Part shown: in pieces, positions 1 through 29,855 of the stretch
Layout of the letters: each line of letters starts with the position of its first letter
Numbering within the stretch: position 1 is the first letter of the stretch
NCBI GenBank assembly: GCA_015063035.1
Contig: SUTG01000015.1
Span: 8,389 to 40,388, forward strand
DNA length: 32,000 nt
Reading direction: 5' to 3'
Source: Methanobrevibacter olleyae
GTDB lineage: Archaea > Methanobacteriota > Methanobacteria > Methanobacteriales > Methanobacteriaceae
Made by a program: the position numbers and the translations under genes
The notes under the pieces: generated by a model
Databases searched by the model: none
What the model was told of the DNA's origin: nothing
What the model saw: only the letters and a program-made list of their open reading frames with translations

Positions 1-262
1 AAAAGTTAGCAAAAAGAACATGATCCAATTTGTCCACTTGACTTTTGAGAGCATCACTAACCTCATCATTGCAGTGCCCAAGCAAATTGCACCACCAGGA
101 GCTGATGATGTCTATATACTCCTTGCCCTCTACATCATATAGCTTAACCCCTTTTCCATGGTCAATTATTATTGGCGGAAAATCTTCATAGTCTTTCATC
201 TGAGAAGCAGGATGCCAAATATGGGCCAAATCCTTTTCAATGCATTTATTAATTTTATCCAT
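1..262 (-). CDS. bioA: Adenosylmethionine-8-amino-7-oxononanoate aminotransferase BioA, N-terminal 87 codons; gene runs off the left edge
   Basis: Not in the ORF track because it is an edge-truncated ORF. Minus-strand translation from the ATG at 262-260 gives MDKINKCIEKDLAHIWHPASQMKDYEDFPPIIIDHGKGVKLYDVEGKEYIDIISSWWCNLLGH..KSQVDKLDHVLF. The HIWHP and SSWW..GH boxes match BioA-type class III aminotransferases. Confidence 0.8.
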   Translation of the reverse strand, partial: MDKINKCIEKDLAHIWHPASQMKDYEDFPPIIIDHGKGVKLYDVEGKEYIDIISSWWCNLLGHCNDEVSDALKSQVDKLDHVLFANF

Positions 263-409
263 ATTAAAACCTTATAATTTAGAATGATTAACTAAAATTA
301 CTATTCAATTAAAACCTTATAATTTAGAATGATTAACTAAAATTACTATTCAATTAAAACCTTATAATTTAGAATGATTAACTAAAATTACTATTCAATT
401 AAAACCTTG
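263..409. repeat. 45-bp perfect tandem repeat, 3 full copies plus a 12-nt partial copy, directly abutting the bioA start codon
   Basis: The unit attaaaaccttataatttagaatgattaactaaaattactattca occurs at 263-307, 308-352 and 353-397. A partial copy lies at 398-409 and continues into a diverged older copy up to about 442. Confidence 0.95.
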
Positions 410-549
410 AACTTAAGATGATAATTAAATTCTTCATTATAAGATTAGACTTTATATTAAATAAACTTAATTTAATCGATACGTATTTTGAATTATTCGA
501 TTAGTTTTATTGTCAAATTATTTTAAAAGATGATTGGGATTTCAATGTA

Positions 550-1614
550 TTATTTCAAAACAATGGTATTTGCAAGGGCTGCGATTTGAGATTTATTTAA
601 GCTAGTATACTTTAAAACATCCTCAACTTTGAATCCATCTTCTAAAAGCCTTTCTACAACTTTCACCTCACCTAAGACTTTTCCTTCTTCCATAGCTTCC
701 TCCTTGACTTCCTCTTTAACTTCCTCTTTAACTTCCTCTTTGGCATTTTCCAAAAGTTCTTTTAATTTTGCTTCCTGTATAACTTGCTTTTCGTACATAT
801 CTAACTTATGCAAATCCTCTTCGCTTAACATTTTACTATCCCTCTTAAATTTTTCAAGCTGTTGCCTATCTAAAACTTGTTGAGCAAGCAATCTTTGATG
901 ATTCTTAATATCAATAAAAACATGTTTATCTGAAATATTAAGTTTTGAAGTTATCTCATCAGTTTTATAAATTAAGTCTTTTCTTTTTTCCAAATCCTCT
1001 GTCATGAATGGAATTGTTAATAATATAGCCAAATCATATTCGTCCGGCTTTTTGTCAATTTCTATTATTTTATCCATTATATTTAAATATGTCGATAAAT
1101 CTAGGCTAGTTAACGATTTAACATGCGGAGTAAACCCATATTCAATTTTTAAGGAATTTAAATCATTTGTATCGGCTATCACATCTTCATCGAAATATTC
1201 CCCAAATCCGAATAATTCATTTGAATCCTCTTTTGCATCTAAACTTATGATAGTCACTATTGTCTCCAATCCCGTTTCCTTATAAACCAAAACTTGATAA
1301 GACCCAAATCTTATTAAATCCTTATCACTTATAGGCCCTGTTTGAAATTCATTTATATACATCTTCGGCTCATCGGATTCTATCAAGTTATCAATATGCA
1401 ACTCTCCGAATATTTCATTGATTTTTTCTGTATTATGAAACTGTTTAATTTTTATTGGATAGCCAATAAGTTTCATAAATCCTTCTCCAGCGATAGACAT
1501 CACATTTTTAAAGTATTTATCATAAGGCTTATGAACCCTATAATCACCCTTATCAATCTTTAAGTTAGATGATGGATTAGTATTGGTCAGAGGAAAATCT
1601 TTACCAATTGTCAT
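550..1614 (-). CDS. PD-(D/E)XK nuclease-family putative transposase (Rpn/YhgA-like)
   Basis: 354-aa ORF. The ATG is preceded by GGTGAT, 3 nt upstream. PYDKYFKNVM resembles the N-terminal HD..FK box. ELHIDNL..MYINEFQT resembles the D..E-x-Q nuclease core. A Glu/Lys tract (EEVKEEVKEEVKEE) and a helical tail follow. The family was assigned from recalled motifs only. Confidence 0.5.
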   Translation of the reverse strand: MTIGKDFPLTNTNPSSNLKIDKGDYRVHKPYDKYFKNVMSIAGEGFMKLIGYPIKIKQFHNTEKINEIFGELHIDNLIESDEPKMYINEFQTGPISDKDLIRFGSYQVLVYKETGLETIVTIISLDAKEDSNELFGFGEYFDEDVIADTNDLNSLKIEYGFTPHVKSLTSLDLSTYLNIMDKIIEIDKKPDEYDLAILLTIPFMTEDLEKRKDLIYKTDEITSKLNISDKHVFIDIKNHQRLLAQQVLDRQQLEKFKRDSKMLSEEDLHKLDMYEKQVIQEAKLKELLENAKEEVKEEVKEEVKEEAMEEGKVLGEVKVVERLLEDGFKVEDVLKYTSLNKSQIAALANTIVLK

Positions 1615-1920
1615 GATATCACCAAAAAAATTATAATCAATGCCTAATTTATAAAAACTAATATATAAATTAGTAGTTTTTAATAAAACTCCTTTAACAA
1701 TCTCAAATCAATATTCTAAGGATTTTAAACTTTTTAAAATTATTATAATAATCTAATGAAATTATAAATTAAATCGCCAGTGAAAGATCATAATGAAATC
1801 AATTAAAAAAAAACAAGTCAAATAAAAAAAATAAAACAACTAAAAAAAACAACTAAAAAAATATACAATAAAACCAAATAAACAAAAAACAACTAAAAAA
1901 ATAAGAAAAAAATAAAAATT

Positions 1921-1965
1921 ATTAAAAAAAATAAGAAAAAGTGAAATATTGTAAGAATATTTCAC
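1921..1965 (-). terminator. Hairpin plus T-tract terminator immediately after the beta-helix protein gene
   Basis: Stem gtgaaatatt (1941-1950) pairs with aatatttcac (1956-1965) around a 5-nt loop. On the minus strand it is followed by TTTTTCTTATTTTTTTT. It abuts the stop codon at 1966-1968. Confidence 0.6.
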
Positions 1966-3585
1966 TTAAGATTTATATGGATTAGACTCGGTATATGCTA
2001 CACCATCAACATATAAAGTGTGTCCTTCATAATAGATTTCACCATTGTTTTCCAAGCTTGTTATATGACTGTCTCCATCTAATGTCCAGTCAGAGCCAGA
2101 TTCGATTACGACATCAGTTTGTCCAAAATCATCAGAAGGATTGATGGTTCCAACATAGCTGGTAGAGCTTAAAGTCATATTCAATGAACTGATGGAATCT
2201 ACAATAATGTTTCCATCGAGAATTTCATCTTTTGCATTGAAAGTGAGCTGGCCACCATTTGAACCTGCTGTTCCCCATTGGCTTTGACCTGAAACATCCA
2301 ATAATGTGCCGCTGCCATAGTTAAGTTCTGTTTTTTCCAAATTAATGATTGCCTTGGTATTGGTAACATGGAACATTGGTGCAGATTCATAATACTCGGA
2401 ATCAGATAGAATTGACAATGCAGAATCCTTTGCAGTGAAAATGGATGTGCCCACATCAGCATCTCCACTCATGCTTTGATAGATGAATACACCACCTAAA
2501 TCCACATATTCACCATTATCCTGCCTGTTTCCACCTGCAGCTGCAGACAAGTCACAGTTTGTAAGTTCAATGCTGTTTTTACCTTCAATACAAGCTATTT
2601 GAGAAACATAAGCAGTACCTACAGAGTTTGCTACAGTTATGTTTCCTGTAGAGTAGATTATTGGTGAACCACTACCGCTTTCCTTGCTCACTCCCGTATT
2701 CAGTTCACTGTCACTTACATGAACCTCTCCTTCACCACGATCAGTGGCAAGAGCTGCACAGCTTTGACCATTTGTATTGATTATGACATTTTGAGCATTG
2801 ATGATCCCATTGTATGTTGCATCAAGTCCACGGGACTGGTCACTGTATGTGGTAATTTCCACATTTTCAATATTTGCCACTGTTGAACCTTCTACACTAT
2901 CTTGATTAGATGCGGACATAGCTGATGATTCACCACCACTAGGAGCTCCATTAGAATCACCAGAACTCATTTCAGGAGGAGTGCCACCATCTGAAGAATT
3001 ATCACCAGAACTCATAGAAGGAGGACTGCCACCATTCGAAGAATTATCACCGGAAGGCATAGCAGGAGGTGTTCCTCCATTAGTTGAATCTTCTCCAGAC
3101 CCGCTTGAACTTTCTGCCAATCCATTACCGTCCAATACAACAGAACCATTAGAAGAGGAAGAGGAACTTTCTGCATTTGTTACAAAAATACCATTTGATC
3201 CTTTTGAATTTGTAATTATCTTTACATTGGAGATATCCAAGCTCCCATTTGTATTAACTAAAACCGCTGAGTTGATTCCATAGAAGTCAACATCATCCCC
3301 AGTTGAACTTGTATCCCCTGTTTTATTGATTATGGAATTAGCTAATTTCAATACTCCATTGTTTTTTACTAAAACAGCGTTTTCATCAGAAGATGAACTT
3401 GAATACAAACCATTGTCTGCAGAGATCTCTTCTGAGTCAACAACTAGATTTCCCTTATCTTCAAGTGCATTTGCATCAACATTTACTGAAGCACTATTAC
3501 CTGATTGCATATTACTTAATGCAAAGGCACCAGCACATATTATTATGATTATTGCAATTATTGCAATTAAGATTTTTTTATTCAT
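1966..3585 (-). CDS. Secreted or membrane-anchored right-handed beta-helix protein, Cthe_2159-like carbohydrate-binding family (putative)
   Basis: The ORF track extends to 3603 with a TTG start. The ATG at 3585 gives MNKKILIAIIAIIIIICAGAFALSN, a signal peptide or anchor. Periodic N/G/S-x-I/V beta-helix turns are present. The blocks DFYGINSAVLV, CAALATDRGEGEV, GSPIIYSTGNI and ACIEGKNSIEL recall the family named after C. thermocellum Cthe_2159. There is an internal S/G/P linker. Confidence 0.55.
   Translation of the reverse strand: MNKKILIAIIAIIIIICAGAFALSNMQSGNSASVNVDANALEDKGNLVVDSEEISADNGLYSSSSSDENAVLVKNNGVLKLANSIINKTGDTSSTGDDVDFYGINSAVLVNTNGSLDISNVKIITNSKGSNGIFVTNAESSSSSSNGSVVLDGNGLAESSSGSGEDSTNGGTPPAMPSGDNSSNGGSPPSMSSGDNSSDGGTPPEMSSGDSNGAPSGGESSAMSASNQDSVEGSTVANIENVEITTYSDQSRGLDATYNGIINAQNVIINTNGQSCAALATDRGEGEVHVSDSELNTGVSKESGSGSPIIYSTGNITVANSVGTAYVSQIACIEGKNSIELTNCDLSAAAGGNRQDNGEYVDLGGVFIYQSMSGDADVGTSIFTAKDSALSILSDSEYYESAPMFHVTNTKAIINLEKTELNYGSGTLLDVSGQSQWGTAGSNGGQLTFNAKDEILDGNIIVDSISSLNMTLSSTSYVGTINPSDDFGQTDVVIESGSDWTLDGDSHITSLENNGEIYYEGHTLYVDGVAYTESNPYKS
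2954..3088. repeat. In-frame imperfect 45-bp tandem repeat, about 3 copies, encoding an S/G/D/P-rich linker
   Basis: Units start near 2954, 2996 and 3041. They encode GEDSTNGGTPPAMP, SGDNSSNGGSPPSMS and SGDNSSDGGTPPEMS. Confidence 0.85.
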
Positions 3586-3798
3586 AGGAATTAATAACTC
3601 CAAACTTGCCTATAAATTTTACTATTAACGTAACAAAATAAGAAATCGAAAAATATGAAAAAATTGAAATAATGAATTTAAATTCCCAATTAAAAATCGT
3701 GACCCCACTAACTAGTAGTAGTTAAATCTAATTTGAAGAATATTGTTTAAAAATTTCCTGGATTTATATTCAAATGTTTAACAACTAAAAACAAGTTA

Positions 3799-3837
3799 AA
3801 AAAAAAAAAGTGAAAGGTGGATAAATAAATATCCACT
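3799..3837 (-). terminator. Hairpin plus T-tract terminator after the tannase gene
   Basis: Stem gtggata (3818-3824) pairs with tatccac (3831-3837) around a 6-nt loop. On the minus strand it is followed by CTTTCAC and then a run of 12 T. It lies 4 nt after the stop codon at 3842-3844. Confidence 0.6.
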
Positions 3838-3841
3838 CATT

Positions 3842-5728
3842 TTAGTTTAAGCAATTATTCACCCAATTAATGAAATTGGTGGTGGAGTCACCAGTTCTTT
3901 CTGCTTGGGTGTGTCCTTGACCCCATACAGTTGAAAACTCAACGTTATCTTTTCCAACCTTATTCAACACTGCCAAATATAGGTTGACATCAACACATTG
4001 AGATGTGTCCCCCTGTTCAATACCTGTATTGATTCTCCAATAGTTAGCCACGTCAGAGCTTCCAGCTCCATCATAGTAGTCGCATAAGTAATACATTGGA
4101 TTATACATGTTTACACGGGTTTCCATAGAATTGTTTAAACTATCTGTTGCCGCCAAATCATTTTTATATTGGCTAGCATAATCAGATGAGTAATCACTGT
4201 ATTTGGAGTAAGATTCGCCATTATTGTTAAGCAACTCGCTTAATGTTTTATCGAAATGTGATGAACTGTTTGCATCAATACCAAACAATGCATTTTCAGC
4301 TTGAGAACGTTCCAAATCATCAAAAGCAGCTACAGATTTAGATGGGTTTTTGCAATGTTTTACAAAAGCTTCCAAACTGGTGATTTTTGCTGTGTTTGTA
4401 CTTGCATCATATTCAATCCATGTTTCGTTTCCATTAAGTGAATCTATATAGTCCTGTGCAGTTTCATAGCTTGTTGAAGAGTCTGCATCAGTGCTTTCAC
4501 TTGACATTTCACCACTCAAATTTCCACTTGGAGCCTCACCAGAAGGAGCCTCACCACTCATATTTCCACTTGGAGCCTCACCAGAAGGAGCCTCACCACT
4601 CATATTTCCACTTGGAGCCTCACCAGAAGGAGCCTCACCAGAAGGCATTTCTCCGCTAGTTGCTTCACCTGATTGCATGTCTCCCATGCCATTGGAACTT
4701 GGAGTGTAAGGGAATGTTGTATCATTCAAGAAATTATTCAATGACTCTTCAGTAACACTTAACATATAGTCGTAGTAACTGCCTGATGTATAGATTCCAC
4801 TATCGCTTTCCTCTAGTGTCAATGTGTTTCCATTCGGATCTTTTAAGCCTAAATCGTTAATGTATTTAGCATATTCTGTTGCCAAATCAGTGCTTAATGC
4901 ACCGGTAAATGAATCTGAACTTCTCGCATATTGTCCCAGATTCCATTCATATGCTCCATCAGCTGTATCCAAATTGGTTATTGGACACCAACACATTGAA
5001 CCATAGATTGCATTTGACAATGCGTTTCCATCCTTATCAACCATAGCAGCTCCGATATCCTCCAAATATGGATTATATAATTCACTGTTTCCGGAAGCTC
5101 CCATTATTGCAGATTGGGCTCCTCCTCCACTATGGCCAAATGTGAATATTTTCTCATCATCTCCAGGCAATACATCACCATTGAATCTGTAATAGCTTAC
5201 AGCTGCTTTCAGGTCAACTACACCATCAGGCGCTTCTGCATTGTCTCTTCCTCTGCAACCGGCATTCAAGTAGATGAATCCAGCGTCAGTGTATTCTTTA
5301 ATTTCACCTGCATTGTAGCTTGTAGGTGCTGCACATGAGGAATAACCAGGTGTGTTTACTGGCATCACTATAGGTGCAGAGCCAGCGGTATAATTTCCAA
5401 CCTGTACATTTTCATTTAAACTACAAGTATAAGTCCCATTTGAATTTTTTGTCCCATCAAAGTATTTTCCAGGAACATATATTCCACAGGATTCATAAGC
5501 AGTGTCTTCAGGATTCATACAGTATACAAGACCTATTTGATAATAGATGTCATTTGTTTCGTCATATTGCCAATTATTCATGTCGATTGATAGGGAATTC
5601 GTTAAAACACTTGCATTATATGAAGGCCCATCTCCTGTAGGGGTTGAACTGCCCATCAGGAAAAAAGCTCCTACAATCGCAAGTAGAATAATTATGGCAA
5701 TTGCAATAAGTTTATGTAATTTTTTCAT
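3842..5728 (-). CDS. Secreted tannase (tannin acyl hydrolase, bacterial subtype-B-like alpha/beta hydrolase)
   Basis: The ORF track extends to 5779. The ATG at 5728 has GGTGG 4 nt upstream and gives [28 protein letters not shown], a signal anchor. Several blocks align by eye with Lactobacillus plantarum TanB as I recall it. [12 protein letters not shown] matches [58 protein letters not shown] matches [61 protein letters not shown] matches [29 protein letters not shown] matches HWRIRHGAADRDTS. The C-terminal GHT matches PHS. The Ser, Asp and His triad positions are all present. Confidence 0.8.
   Translation of the reverse strand: [628 protein letters not shown]
4511..4646. repeat. In-frame near-perfect 42-bp tandem repeat, about 3.1 copies, inside the tannase gene
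   Basis: The unit tttccacttggagcctcaccagaaggagcctcaccactcata starts at 4521, 4563 and 4605. It encodes [14 protein letters not shown] repeats. Confidence 0.95.
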
Positions 5729-6153
5729 AATACCACCATTAAGTAATAATAATAATAACTCCCATTTCTTATTTAACATTTTCTAAGAAAAACCCCGTTT
5801 TAATCATTTTTTTTATAATGGAATGCATTAGACTTTTAAAATTATATAAGATTGGGAGGTTTTTACTTTAACATTTTTGGTTGTAATAATTGGGAAATCA
5901 TTATCTATGATATAAGTATGCATATGGAAATGAGGTTTGGGTGTATGTGAAAAAAATTATAAATGTGAAAAGAAACTAAACAAGTTTAAAAATTAAGAAA
6001 GATATGAAAAAAACTGAAATTTAATAGAAATTTAATTAAAAATTTTTGCCTAAGAAACAAGTACAATTTTAATTAAAAGGAAATATAAAATAAAAAAAGA
6101 AATTAAGATAAACTATAAAATAATTATAGCTATCTTCAATATAATTAAAAGAA

Positions 6154-6861
6154 TTATTTGAAATATGAAATCAATTCATCTGCATCTATCTTAGGCAGTA
6201 AATTTGTATCATTTTGATAAACTTTTGCTATAACCGGAACATTGCAAAGATCTTCAACCATCTTGATATTGTCATTTTCCATAAGCTCATCCCTGTAATT
6301 GTTCATGATGATTCCACATGGACGAATGTTTCTGTTTTTCAAGTATTCAACTGTGGTGACAATTGAGTTGATTGTTCCAAGCCCTGCATCGGCAATGAGT
6401 ATGACATCAAGACCAAGATACTTTATTATGTCCTCAAGCATGATGTTGCTCTCATGGTCTTTTCCGTCGTAACGTATAGGGCAAACTATACCTCCACTCC
6501 CTTCCATCACGATATAATCATATTTTTGGGATACCTTTTCATAAGCATCTTTCACTACATCTAAATTTACTGGATTTCCTTCAATCTGACTTGCAAGATG
6601 TGGTGAAACTGCAGTTTCATAAATGTATGGAACCAAGAAATCGGTATCTTCCTCTAAACCAGCCATTGTCAATACCTCTACAGCATCTCCAGGAACCAAA
6701 GAACCATTTTCATCTCTTATGGCTCCACTTAAAGCCGCTTTGAAATAAGTGGCATCATATCCATTGTCACGAATATACTTCAGCAATAATCCGGTGACAT
6801 ATGTTTTTCCAATATCTGTTCCAGTTCCAATTACAAAGAGTCCTTTAGACACAAGTATCAC
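6154..6861 (-). CDS. bioD: Dethiobiotin synthetase
   Basis: 235-aa ORF with the P-loop GTGTDIGKTYVTG. The GTG start overlaps the bioB stop (GTGA). An alternative GTG 3 codons downstream would give MSKGLFVIGTGT. Confidence 0.85.
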   Translation of the reverse strand: MILVSKGLFVIGTGTDIGKTYVTGLLLKYIRDNGYDATYFKAALSGAIRDENGSLVPGDAVEVLTMAGLEEDTDFLVPYIYETAVSPHLASQIEGNPVNLDVVKDAYEKVSQKYDYIVMEGSGGIVCPIRYDGKDHESNIMLEDIIKYLGLDVILIADAGLGTINSIVTTVEYLKNRNIRPCGIIMNNYRDELMENDNIKMVEDLCNVPVIAKVYQNDTNLLPKIDADELISYFK

Positions 6862-21270: not shown

Positions 21271-22244
21271 TCATTTAGAATTTTTTATTTCCAAAATCTT
21301 TTCTAGAGGAATATCTAAATCATTTGAGACCTCTTCAGGGCTATGATTCTCTAAAAGCTTAGAAATTAAAAAGTCTTCTCTTTCTTTAGCTTCTTTTCTA
21401 GCTTCTTCCCTAGCTTCTTTTTTACCTCTTTCTAAAGTTACTTCCTCAAACTGTTCCAAGCAATTAGCAATGATAGCCTCTTCTAGAACCTCTTCAAAAG
21501 GTCTTTGTACCAATTTTGACATATTTAACACTTCCATAATAAATTCCTTATTTTTTGAATCCCTAATCTTTCTTCCTAACCATAATTCTAAACATCTTTT
21601 TGCTATATCTAATAATGAATCATCAGCAATGATTTTACCAAATAATTCTAAAAGTTCTAATAGAAGACCTTCTATAGACAAATCATTGTAAAATGTTGGA
21701 AGCCAAATGAAATCTAAAATATCATAAACATCCCATTGTAAAATGTTGGAAGCCAAATGAAATCTAAAATATCATAAACATCCCATTCATCTTGATTGAA
21801 AGTTTTATGTTTCAGATTATTAAGTAAAATATTGCCATTGACTTCTTGTGTAATAAACCACATAGGACTGAAAAACATTAAATCATTTAAACTATGCACT
21901 TTATTTACTGGCAATTTGCCAGTGTAAAAAATAAAGGGATCGACTTTCTTTTTAGAAGCCTTATGCAAACTTACACAATAACTATAATCTCTCCTCATTA
22001 AATAATCATTTATAGAGGAGTGATGTTCTATATTTATTAAATTCCCATTAGACCTTTCTCTTACAGAATCTAAATTTAGATTCTCAAATGAAGATGAGAT
22101 AACTCTATTATCATATTTATTAAAATTATCTGAAATTTTAGTGATGTAATTTGGAAATTCTTCAATTTCAGACATGCAAATAACAAATATTTCATCTTCA
22201 ATATCATATCTAAAGGGAATATGAAACTTTTTATCTTTTAGCAT
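21271..22244 (-). pseudogene. Rpn/PD-(D/E)XK putative transposase-like gene disrupted by a 50-bp tandem duplication that causes a frameshift
   Basis: ORFs 21714-22244 and 21271-21756 overlap, and both encode WDVYDILDFIWLPTFYN. Removing one 50-bp unit joins the ATG at 22244 to the stop at 21271 as a single 307-aa frame (924 nt). NLINIEHHSS..RRDYSY resembles the EhQS nuclease core. The C-terminus is Glu/Lys/Arg-rich, like that of ORF 550-1614. Confidence 0.7.
21684..21787. repeat. Perfect 50-bp tandem duplication (2 copies plus 4 nt) inside the Rpn-like gene
   Basis: Positions 21684-21733 equal 21734-21783 (cattgtaaaatgttggaagccaaatgaaatctaaaatatcataaacatcc). The 4-nt catt recurs at 21784-21787, giving microhomology at the junction. 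Confidence 0.95.
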
Positions 22245-28212: not shown

Positions 28213-29346
28213 GTGGAAAAGCCACAATTAGTGAATTTTATTGCTAAAGTTCTTGAGGATTCTGGCTTTAAAGTTTATAAAAATTTTAAGACATCCCAAC
28301 AGGTTGTAGACATTTATGCAATCCTTCAAACATCCATGGGGGATTTTGGTTTAGTGGTTGCATGTAAAAACTATGATAAGGATTGGGAAGTAGGAATCGA
28401 TGTTTTAAAGGAAATGGAAGTGCTCGGTAAAAAGCTTAGAGCTTCCAAGGTTGCTGTTGTAACCAGTTCCGGTTTTTCATCTCAAGCAAAAAGATATGCT
28501 GAAGAGAGGAAGATAAAGCTTATAGACAGAAACAACCTTGTCACTTTAGCTAAAAAATATTCAAATAAAAACAAGGAAACTAAGGCAAGATTAGACCGTG
28601 GAGCAAACAGATTAACAGACATTGATAGCGATTCATTCTATCATAGAGATGTTAGCAGAGAATATATTGACAATACATCAAATTATAATAGCGAATATGA
28701 TGATGACAAGTCATATAACAGGCTTCAAGGTGCTTATGAAACTTATGAGGAATTCTCTGAAGACATGGAATATTACGAGGATGAAGTTGGCGGATTGGAA
28801 TTGAGTCATTACAGTGAATATGATGATGACCTTTACCGTGCCGAGTTCTTAAATAAAACTCCTAGAGACAACTATTCCGGCCCAAGTGCTACACTATTTG
28901 CAAATCGTCAGCAACAAACTCAAAGAAGGAGAAGCGTACCTTCCCTTTCAGGAAATAGAAGAGCCGGATCTCTTAGCCAAAGAAGCAATAGGCCTACAAA
29001 CAATCATAGCTTCTTCTCATCTTCTGATAATGCCTTAAGTAATTTTGGCGGACATGTCCCTCAAAAGCCAAGCAAGCCATGGGGAGAGATTATAAAACCT
29101 ATATTAAGCAACCCTATAGCATCTGTTGCTGTGGTAGTCATTATTTCATATTTAATTGGATTTATCCTTGGAAAAATAATAAAAGTGCCTACAGGATACT
29201 TAGGTATTGCTGAACTATTTATGGCATTGATATTGTCTTATGGCATTGTATTGTATTCAGACAAAGAAGCGGATGTTATAGTGAAAGGATCAATCGTGTT
29301 CTTTATCTCATTAGTGATAATCATGATATTGATTGTTGCTTTCTAG
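28213..29346 (+). CDS. Membrane-anchored Mrr-cat-like (restriction endonuclease fold) protein with a long disordered linker
   Basis: The GTG start has AGGTGA 5 nt upstream. Residues 1-115 follow the Mrr_cat layout: FIAKVLEDSGFKV..VVDIYA..GLVVACKNY..KVAVVTSSGFSSQAKRYAEERKIKLIDRNNLVTLA. About 170 residues rich in Y/D/E and then R/S/Q/N follow. Three predicted C-terminal TM helices are PIASVAVVVIISYLIGFILG, LGIAELFMALILSYGIVLY and SIVFFISLVIIMILIVAF. Confidence 0.6.
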   Translation: MEKPQLVNFIAKVLEDSGFKVYKNFKTSQQVVDIYAILQTSMGDFGLVVACKNYDKDWEVGIDVLKEMEVLGKKLRASKVAVVTSSGFSSQAKRYAEERKIKLIDRNNLVTLAKKYSNKNKETKARLDRGANRLTDIDSDSFYHRDVSREYIDNTSNYNSEYDDDKSYNRLQGAYETYEEFSEDMEYYEDEVGGLELSHYSEYDDDLYRAEFLNKTPRDNYSGPSATLFANRQQQTQRRRSVPSLSGNRRAGSLSQRSNRPTNNHSFFSSSDNALSNFGGHVPQKPSKPWGEIIKPILSNPIASVAVVVIISYLIGFILGKIIKVPTGYLGIAELFMALILSYGIVLYSDKEADVIVKGSIVFFISLVIIMILIVAF

Positions 29347-29634: not shown

Positions 29635-29650
29635 AAAAAAAGTTGAGAAG

Positions 29651-29722
29651 TGGTTCCGACGAGATTCGAACTCGTGATCCTCTCGTTGTAAGCGAGATAT
29701 CATACCCCTAGACCACGGAACC
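29651..29722 (-). tRNA. tRNA-Val: tRNA-Val (anticodon UAC), copy 1
   Basis: The minus-strand sequence is GGTTCCGTGGTCTAGGGGTATGATATCTCGCTTACAACGAGAGGATCACGAGTTCGAATCTCGTCGGAACCA. The acceptor stem is 7 bp. The anticodon stem TCTCG/CGAGA encloses the loop CTTACAA. The T arm is ACGAG-TTCGAAT-CTCGT. No CCA is encoded. Confidence 0.9.
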
Positions 29723-29783
29723 AATGCAAAAAATAGAATTAAAGTTTTTTTAAAAAAATTAATTCAAAAAATAAAGAATAGAG

Positions 29784-29855
29784 TGGTTCCGACGAGATTC
29801 GAACTCGTGATCCTCTCGTTGTAAGCGAGATATCATACCCCTAGACCACGGAACC
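29784..29855 (-). tRNA. tRNA-Val: tRNA-Val (anticodon UAC), copy 2, identical to copy 1
   Basis: The 72-nt sequence is the same as at 29651-29722. The two copies are separated by a 61-nt AT-rich spacer. Confidence 0.9.

Follow-up and report, generated by a model that had tools for sequence, protein, structure and literature searches.

How three genes came to lie between the biotin synthesis genes bioD and bioA is the question raised by a 32,000-nt stretch of Methanobrevibacter olleyae DNA (contig SUTG01000015.1 of assembly GCA_015063035.1, positions 8,389 to 40,388; the whole stretch is referred to here as the window). Equivalogs of BioB, BioD and BioA are encoded on its minus strand in this order but not contiguously, as bioD and bioA are 5.9 kb apart and the gap is occupied by genes, likewise on the minus strand, for a tannase, for a protein predicted to form a beta-helix and for an open reading frame (ORF) that we file, judging from its sequence relationships, as a divergent member of the Rpn family. 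An earlier note on this DNA had read the arrangement as a single 5.9-kb cassette that was recently acquired and inserted into the operon. Its description of the locus holds upon re-reading of the sequence: bioB and bioD are coupled through a GTGA overlap (GGA TTG TGA with GTG ATA CTT), bioA runs from position 262 and the three genes in between are co-oriented. Comparison with related loci, however, makes it quite probable that the three genes are independent modules, each with its own gains and losses spread over a long time, and that the space between bioD and bioA is an accessory slot (Table 1).

The relatives compared are metagenome contigs or metagenome-assembled genomes (MAGs; L and P labels), and at this one site they differ in which of the three genes they carry. 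A bioB-bioD-betahelix-bioA arrangement is found in L005, in which Hef and bioB are 97% and 91% identical to those of the window, and also in L092-95. L096/97 feature a bioB-bioD-betahelix-Rpn-bioA cluster, and in L106 an ORF of 102 amino acids (L106 8041-8349) is situated between the Rpn-like gene and bioA of an otherwise identical arrangement. In L098-103 and L107 the Rpn-like gene precedes bioA and the contig starts or breaks upstream, and L104 contains a bioB-bioD-tannase-betahelix arrangement that is collinear with the window at 89.5% DNA identity. When compared with L005 by blastn, the window does not exhibit a single extra segment but two separate blocks that flank the conserved beta-helix gene, one containing the tannase with its own upstream region and terminator and the other the Rpn-like gene. 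The tannase segment is present in L104 and absent from L005, L092, L096 and L106. This is the only one of the three genes with a restricted distribution at the site, and yet it is common to the window and L104 with collinear flanks. The beta-helix gene resides in the bioD-bioA gap of every close relative that reaches past bioD, except for L003, and the Rpn-like gene is located upstream of bioA in all five lineages in which the family was found (the window, L096/97, L098-103, L106 and L107). More distant relatives encode a GNAT acetyltransferase after bioD (L003, 1836-2462) or an ORF for 120 amino acids in this position (L001, 2527-2889), and some others have bioB without bioD. Because relatives carry differing small genes or subsets of genes in the same spacer, the latter appears to be a slot with slow turnover of single genes.

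Divergence within the slot was estimated by the Nei-Gojobori method. For the Rpn-like gene, the number of synonymous substitutions per synonymous site (dS) is 0.86-1.06, and for the beta-helix gene it is 0.77-0.97; the flanking genes give 0.66-1.4. With dS values equal to those of their neighbors, both genes appear to have resided at this locus for as long as the lineages have been separate. Ratios of nonsynonymous to synonymous substitution (dN/dS), 0.18-0.33 in the Rpn-like gene, 0.11-0.16 in the beta-helix gene and 0.11 in the tannase (versus L104), as against 0.03-0.13 in the biotin genes, indicate purifying selection on all three intervening genes. For two of the three, the beta-helix and the Rpn-like gene, relatives possess the same gene in the same place with apparently vertical histories, which the earlier note had itself named as a finding that would contradict its cassette. 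Neighbor-joining on bioB-bioD yields the topology (window,(L104,L005)). At least two losses have to be assumed for the Rpn-like gene, since both L005 and L092 lack it and the sister lineage of L092, L096, possesses it.

A slot situated between the bioD terminator and the bioA promoter would allow the gain and loss of single genes without disturbing biotin synthesis, and it would hold three independent, separately transcribed modules of different history. The beta-helix gene would be an old resident. The Rpn-like gene would have been in place before the lineages split and would have been deleted from at least L005 and L092, while the tannase would have been added later and then either lost in L005 or spread between lineages by homologous recombination via the conserved flanks. 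Two circumstances weigh against this picture. Many contigs break in or near the slot, such that the state of each lineage is known only partly: L098-103 begin just upstream of the Rpn-like gene, and L081, L084 and L085 break inside the tannase repeat. Furthermore, dS values of about 1 are near saturation, and equal dS means comparable age, not strictly vertical descent.

The biotin genes themselves have a history that bears on what the slot was opened in. Apart from the five Methanobrevibacter loci, the nearest relatives of bioB are all bacterial (50-56% identity), with Methanosarcinaceae following only at 48-50%, and bioA is 63-67% identical to bacterial homologs. The biotin genes of M. ruminantium have been described as being of bacterial origin, and M. 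millerae is without biotin genes (Kelly et al., 2016, PMC4987999). Taken together, the bacterial nearest relatives and the published account suggest that the supposedly native operon is itself an old import. Among the closest non-Methanobrevibacter (bacterial) bioB relatives, contiguous bioB-bioD-bioA is the commonest arrangement (39 of 80 loci), and because these relatives keep the three genes together, the 5.9-kb gap is the derived state. Bacterial bioBDA operons, such as those of Brachyspira, Mucispirillum, Trichococcus and Ruminococcus, resemble the cluster in the window in gene order, orientation and tight coupling of bioB and bioD, but in these bacteria bioD and bioA are only ~30-240 nt apart, whereas 5.9 kb with a terminator and a promoter-like element separate them in the window. 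The Methanobrevibacter bioB-bioD...bioA cluster would thus descend from a bacterial-type contiguous bioBDA operon. Of the proposed insertion into an operon, the derived nature of the gap is retained; it seems to have arisen stepwise and for the most part anciently, not through one recent cassette.

Transcription signals point in the same direction. Hairpins followed by T-tracts are indeed found after the tannase and the beta-helix gene, as had been described before, and analogous hairpins follow the tannase genes of L088 and L090. The orthologous beta-helix hairpins of L092, L096 and L106 differ in the interior of the stem, which indicates compensatory changes. These structures had been termed bacterial-style terminators. 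Since hairpins plus T-tracts also follow bioD, a Mur-ligase gene and another housekeeping ORF of the window, and T-tracts follow nearly every window gene, they are better regarded as host-style 3' ends than as imported bacterial terminators. The survey of hairpins and T-tracts in the window revealed no terminator after the Rpn-like gene, so that read-through into bioA is possible. The element upstream of bioA looks like an archaeal TATA-type promoter. A search for further copies, such as one in front of bioB that would make it a shared operator, showed it to be unique in the window, with 0 chance matches expected. As this element is conserved in five lineages, bioA is probably transcribed on its own in all of them. 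It had been suggested that the terminators of the intervening genes newly uncouple bioA from bioBD; this does not agree with the fact that both the bioD hairpin with its T-tract and the bioA element are conserved across lineages, even in those with a single gene in the gap, and the uncoupling of bioBD and bioA therefore appears to be old. A scan for sigma-70 promoters found 37 in comparison to 38 expected and, the host being an archaeon, is uninformative. The bioA leader, between the promoter-like element and the bioA ATG, contains a perfect 45-bp repeat. Because the near-identical metagenome contigs L086 and L087, stemming from two samples, carry only 1.2 copies versus 3.2 in the window, this repeat represents a copy-number polymorphism of recent date, for which a direct repeat of 11 bp (AAGGTTTTAAT) was the seed.

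Among the three modules, the tannase is the one for which a later arrival has to be considered. Its match to NF041555 spans model positions 47-619 of 619, and the ATG at 5728 is preferred as the start over 5779 on the basis of homology and the Shine-Dalgarno (SD) sequence. The protein matches solved tannases (6yq4, E = 8e-42); GHSGGG aligns to GTSAGG and WGQGH to WGQGH, and thus the Ser nucleophile motif G-x-S-x-G and the C-terminal catalytic His motif are both present in the alignment to 6yq4. More than 100 tannase clusters are 56-92% identical, all named ones belonging to Methanobrevibacter, and the protein P0041 from M. millerae shares 75% identity. Tannase in Methanobrevibacter is already published: the M. 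millerae enzyme (sm9_1028) has been discussed as a probable acquisition from bacteria and as a tannin-tolerance factor (Kelly et al., 2016, PMC4987999), such that a bacterial origin, as also assumed in the earlier note, had been proposed for the genus there. The tannase of the window, that of M. millerae and TanA of Lactobacillus plantarum share the NF041555 equivalog, an N-terminal signal or anchor and the Ser and His motifs. By analogy with the M. millerae enzyme, the proposed role would be extracellular detoxification of hydrolysable tannins; as predicted from its sequence, the secreted protein would hydrolyze galloyl esters of dietary tannins, which inhibit methanogens. Unlike the M. millerae tannase, the enzyme of the window is encoded inside a biotin cluster and has a lineage-specific SGEAP-rich repeat linker. 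The contig breaks within this repeat (L081, L084, L085) suggest variable copy number or assembly collapse. Tannins are feed additives meant to lower enteric methane; a secreted Methanobrevibacter tannase is a plausible resistance factor, and the presence of tannase at several loci across the genus bears on the durability of tannin-based methane mitigation. In L104, the tannase frame is split near the 5' end into ORFs of 55 and 569 amino acids (4951-5131), owing to either a frameshift or an assembly error.

It is conceivable that the tannase was never ancestral to the window, L104 and L005 but entered one lineage and spread as a filled-site allele through recombination via the bioD and beta-helix flanks, a course of events that we regard as possible but would not expect on balance. 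Between the window and L104, dS is 0.21 for the tannase, 0.37 for bioD and 0.85 for bioB, and L104 groups with the tannase-less L005 in the bioB-bioD tree. That the tannase value is low relative to bioD and bioB is explained by later spread through recombination no less well than by an ancestral gene followed by loss, and in this respect it counts against an ancestral tannase. Elsewhere in the genus the gene occurs at unrelated loci, namely adjoining a DDE transposase (L088) and, in M. millerae, between genes for a prephenate dehydrogenase-family protein and a MarR-family regulator; homology between the window and L088 ends at the tannase start codon and 54 nt past the stop codon. On the other hand, dS varies so widely among neighboring genes that 0.21 as opposed to 0.37 does not settle the matter, the insert and its flank align collinearly at 89.5% identity with no abrupt step in the blastn alignment, and a single deletion in L005 is equally parsimonious. 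If the gene did spread by recombination, the tannase module would be recent horizontal cargo exchanged between archaea, and this consequence we hold with the same reserve.

In the slot of independent modules that we favor, the gene nearest to bioA is the Rpn-like gene, which has its own TATA-like box (TTTATATA, 1662-1669) and an SD sequence, GGTGAT (1618-1623). The close family comprises 15 clusters, the sole named one being a hypothetical protein from an uncultured Methanobrevibacter, and a profile search of 1.8 billion representatives retrieved 78 relatives at E <= 1e-3, the named ones again being Methanobrevibacter hypothetical proteins. Ten of the 25 members of the extended alignment match TIGR01784 (Rpn), some of them over the full length (best E = 7.6e-9), with listed scores of 20-25 bits that fall below the cutoff of 52.1 bits. 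The lone NCBIfam match of the window ORF is PRK09956, with 15.9 bits over the C-terminal 74 residues. Residues D75, E89, F90 and Y106 are invariant across the 25 sequences, down to 17% identity, and Q91 is conserved in at least 90% of the close family; D...E-x-Q, the Rpn version of the PD-(D/E)XK motif, is thereby found in this gene. An AlphaFold2 (AF2) model places the D75/E89 region on strands 76-79 and 84-92. With hhalign, the C-terminal 44 residues align to residues 247-290 of E. coli RpnA with 82.5% probability (E = 9.8e-6), and the best sequence match in the PDB is 7th0 (E = 0.11). As in E. coli RpnA (PDB 7TH0), a PD-(D/E)XK-type core would be followed by a helical C-terminal domain.

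Bacterial Rpn genes encode a toxic full-length nuclease and, from an internal start, a small C-terminal antitoxin, RpnS; soon after the internal start they carry hypervariable repeats of four residues, one hydrophobic and three charged or glycine (Zhong et al., 2023, PMC10327210). They are gained and lost as single genes without inverted repeats or target duplications, and the corresponding group COG5464 has been reported in two archaeal phyla (PMC10327210). The gene in the window shares with them four-residue repeats that vary in number, from ~2 to more than 9 units among homologs, and in type (KEEV, EEGR and VEGR), a conserved internal Met upstream of the repeats, and presence or absence as a single gene lacking inverted repeats and target duplications. 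The repeats and the sequence surrounding them in the C-terminal part evolve fast. The candidate internal start Met262, from which a C-terminal product resembling RpnS could arise, is invariant in the close family and conserved in at least 90% of the 25-sequence family (17-81% identity), also among members that share as little as 17-30% identity, and three database ORFs of 68-77 amino acids start at or next to this position. An SD-like motif precedes Met262 in four of five lineages against a background of 31% (p ~0.04, the lineages not being independent). In contrast to its bacterial counterparts, the gene is archaeal and so divergent that it remains below every Rpn model. Its repeats start 30 residues past Met262 (19 past Met273) as opposed to 8-20 in bacteria, and it is fixed at one locus over a dS of ~1, whereas bacterial rpn genes are patchy and show high turnover.

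By analogy with the bacterial system, a toxin with an intragenic antitoxin is the most likely mechanism for this gene. As a toxic DNA endonuclease, the full-length protein would serve in defense, the small C-terminal protein made from the conserved internal Met would restrain it, and specificity would be set by the variable number of four-residue repeats. We only tentatively propose, somewhat short of an even bet, that Methanobrevibacter possesses a divergent clade of Rpn-type "gene-within-a-gene" toxin/antitoxin nucleases annotated as hypothetical proteins, one of which has become fixed upstream of bioA. Several observations argue against such an assignment. The ORF of the window matches no Rpn model of Pfam or NCBIfam at E <= 0.01, a Pfam scan at E <= 5 yielded only noise, and PADLOC gave no usable direct match for this protein or the beta-helix protein; membership in the Rpn family hence rests on transitive and sub-threshold matches. 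The AF2 model is poor, with a predicted local distance difference test score (pLDDT) of 56, and its top Foldseek matches are enriched in PD-(D/E)XK nucleases but not significant (E >= 0.025). The enrichment of SD-like motifs at the internal start is weak at p ~0.04 in non-independent lineages. Finally, the widespread lineage L098-L103 (P0130-P0132) is devoid of ~40 residues including the putative catalytic D...E-x-Q segment, although its ORF of 303 amino acids is still intact upstream of bioA. Judged by its sequence, this copy cannot be an active nuclease, and it may be nuclease-dead and kept for its C-terminal part. Nevertheless, the unannotated archaeal Rpn clade with its apparent hallmarks of an intragenic antitoxin is the most useful lead from this locus, even if nothing in it is categorically new. 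The gene extends a bacterial defense and toxin-antitoxin family into methanogens and provides a testable archaeal case. If the Met262 product does restrain the nuclease, this would, to our knowledge, be the first intragenic-antitoxin system in Archaea, and one that is unusual in being stably inherited instead of turned over.

The label of PD-(D/E)XK putative transposase, under which the gene had been listed previously, is appropriate insofar as it points to a remote member of the Rpn PD-(D/E)XK family. That it is an active or decaying transposase or a selfish mobile gene, which made the slot and brought in its neighbors, is quite improbable. What speaks for it is that the annotation "putative transposase" is common in the family (TIGR01784 description), that the gene is found or missing as a block of its own and that the catalytic segment is internally deleted in one lineage. 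Against it, the gene is bound to one locus, occupying an identical position upstream of bioA in each of the five lineages in which the family was found; inverted repeats around it are at best 70-78% complementary in AT-rich DNA, which is chance level, and target duplications are lacking; dN/dS of 0.18-0.33 characterizes it as a maintained gene; and Zhong et al. found no evidence that rpn genes transpose, nor is any autonomous PD-(D/E)XK transposase known (PMC10327210). In E. coli K-12 (L105, NC_000913.3, 3543167-3544844), rpnA directly adjoins bioH in convergent orientation. We regard this adjacency as a coincidence and not as a parallel to the neighborhood of the Rpn-like gene and bioA.

The remaining resident of the slot had been assigned as a beta-helix protein from its sequence, and this assignment is borne out by structure prediction. 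The protein has no match in Pfam (including Beta_helix and PbH1) or NCBIfam, but the AF2 model reaches a predicted template modeling score (pTM) of 0.70 with all-beta ordered parts at a pLDDT of 75-95, and the top 50 fold matches in the PDB are all right-handed parallel beta-helices, pertactin being the best (E = 1.5e-3) and Ag43, PL6 and PL3 lyases and tailspikes also being represented. Homologs number in the thousands; identity is 84-100% for the best 120, of which all that bear a name stem from Methanobrevibacter. Over its C-terminal half, the protein is 40% identical to a hypothetical protein encoded on a Selenomonas plasmid. Judging by the model, it is probably an adhesin-like surface protein, either membrane-anchored or secreted. 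With Methanobrevibacter adhesin-like beta-helix proteins, proteins of the pertactin/Ag43 type and pectate-lyase-fold proteins it shares the predicted fold and an N-terminal export or anchor signal; unlike these, it has no family match, and its identity to the Selenomonas protein is only 40%.

What had been stated about mobile-element signatures and composition proved correct. Neither convincing flanking direct or inverted repeats nor an integrase were detected; no ORF for an integrase or transposase is present, and the hallmarks of an insertion sequence, integrative element or cassette are absent. GC content, GC content at third codon positions and codon usage of the three genes are within the range of the other 18 ORFs in the window. 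The flanks of the tannase block were considered as a duplication of the region upstream of the beta-helix gene; local alignments reached only z = 2-3 against shuffles in this very AT-rich DNA, and such a duplication is not claimed because of these low values. The tannase is of bacterial ancestry. To describe the families of the two secreted proteins as known mainly from Firmicutes understated their commonness in Methanobrevibacter. A recent insertion of a single 5.9-kb three-gene cassette from Firmicutes into a native bioBDA operon, separating bioA from the transcription of bioBD, deserves hardly any credence. In its favor, the three genes are contiguous and share one orientation, the tannase belongs to a mainly bacterial family (PMC4987999), the beta-helix protein has its homolog of 40% identity on a Selenomonas plasmid and bioBDA is contiguous in bacterial relatives. 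Against it stand the relatives, which at this site carry one or two of the three genes or another subset; the differences to L005, which form two blocks with the conserved beta-helix gene between them; the dS of the beta-helix and Rpn-like genes, which matches that of the flanks; the host-typical codon usage and GC; the confinement of the known Rpn-like family to Methanobrevibacter-type contigs; and the bioA promoter element and bioD terminator, which are present even in lineages with a one-gene gap. Co-oriented, foreign-looking genes inside an operon hence need not be one cassette, and at this locus it is synteny that resolved what are probably three modules of different age.

Table 1. Features of the bioB-bioA region in the window, listed by position.
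Feature	Position	Strand	Evidence or remark
bioA, 5' part (87 codons), start at 262, cut by the window edge	1..262	-	BioA equivalog match
bioA leader repeat, perfect, 45-bp x3.2	263..408	-	SD-like AAGGT and TTG-initiated six-codon mini-ORF in each unit
Promoter-like element upstream of bioA, 30 nt (TTTATTTAATATAAAGTCTAATCTTATAAT)	436..465	-	near-identical in five lineages, with or without the Rpn-like gene
Rpn-like segment, 1423 bp	474..1896	-	49 nt instead in L005
Divergent Rpn-family PD-(D/E)XK gene (putative), 354 aa	550..1614	-	profile and intermediate homology
12-bp x3.8 repeat in the Rpn-like gene, encoding KEEV-KEEV-KEEV-KEEA	696..741	-	tandem repeat
Candidate internal start Met262, for a putative RpnS-like C-terminal product of ~93 aa	829..831	-	
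12-bp hairpin (GUGAAAUAUU.../...AAUAUUUCAC) and T-tracts after the beta-helix gene	1924..1967	-	z = -5.4, 0/200 shuffles
Beta-helix protein (predicted), 539 aa; N-terminal transmembrane helix/signal, disordered Ser/Gly/Pro repeat linker, all-beta repeats	1966..3585	-	
Linker repeat of the beta-helix gene, 45-bp x2.8	2956-3080	-	in frame
Tannase-lineage segment, 2364 bp (tannase, own upstream region, terminator)	3621..5984	-	37 nt instead in L005
Hairpin (GTGGATA/TATCCAC, 7-bp stem) and T12 after the tannase gene	3797..3836	-	
Subtype A tannase, 628 aa, N-terminal hydrophobic signal/anchor	3842..5728	-	NF041555, 858.3 bits (cutoff 550)
Tannase tandem repeat, 42-bp x3.1, encoding the SGEAP-rich linker	4509-4640	-	in frame
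Hairpin and T7 after bioD	6090..6136	-	minimum free energy -9.9 kcal/mol, z = -2.8; columns invariant across related lineages
bioD (dethiobiotin synthase), GTG start	6154..6861	-	TIGR00347, 131 bits (cutoff 83.3)
bioB (biotin synthase), 331 aa	6858..7853	-	TIGR00433, 390 bits (cutoff 225); Pfam Radical_SAM and BATS

A second GTG is located 9 nt downstream of the bioD GTG and has been picked as the start by some metagenome gene calls. Full-length bioA (450 amino acids) is encoded on L086, a contig near-identical to the window. Outside this region the window is ordinary chromosomal DNA of a gut or rumen Methanobrevibacter, with genes for Hef, a GCD14-family tRNA methyltransferase, two Mur-ligase-like proteins, AcnX, a PALP-family enzyme, Kae1-Bud32, SurE and further housekeeping functions; its nearest matches among public genomes are Methanobrevibacter MAGs. 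Two tRNA-Val(TAC) genes with equal Rfam scores are arranged in tandem at 29650-29722 and 29783-29855, with 61 nt between them, and the pair is adjoined by an ORF with an Mrr-type restriction-endonuclease domain (28336-29346). An ORF for 176 amino acids (21714-22244) is without family match, has the lowest GC content in the window (0.26) and exhibits one of the two most atypical codon-usage scores. The Mrr-domain ORF and the 176-amino-acid ORF are better candidates for foreign DNA than the tannase, beta-helix and Rpn-like genes.

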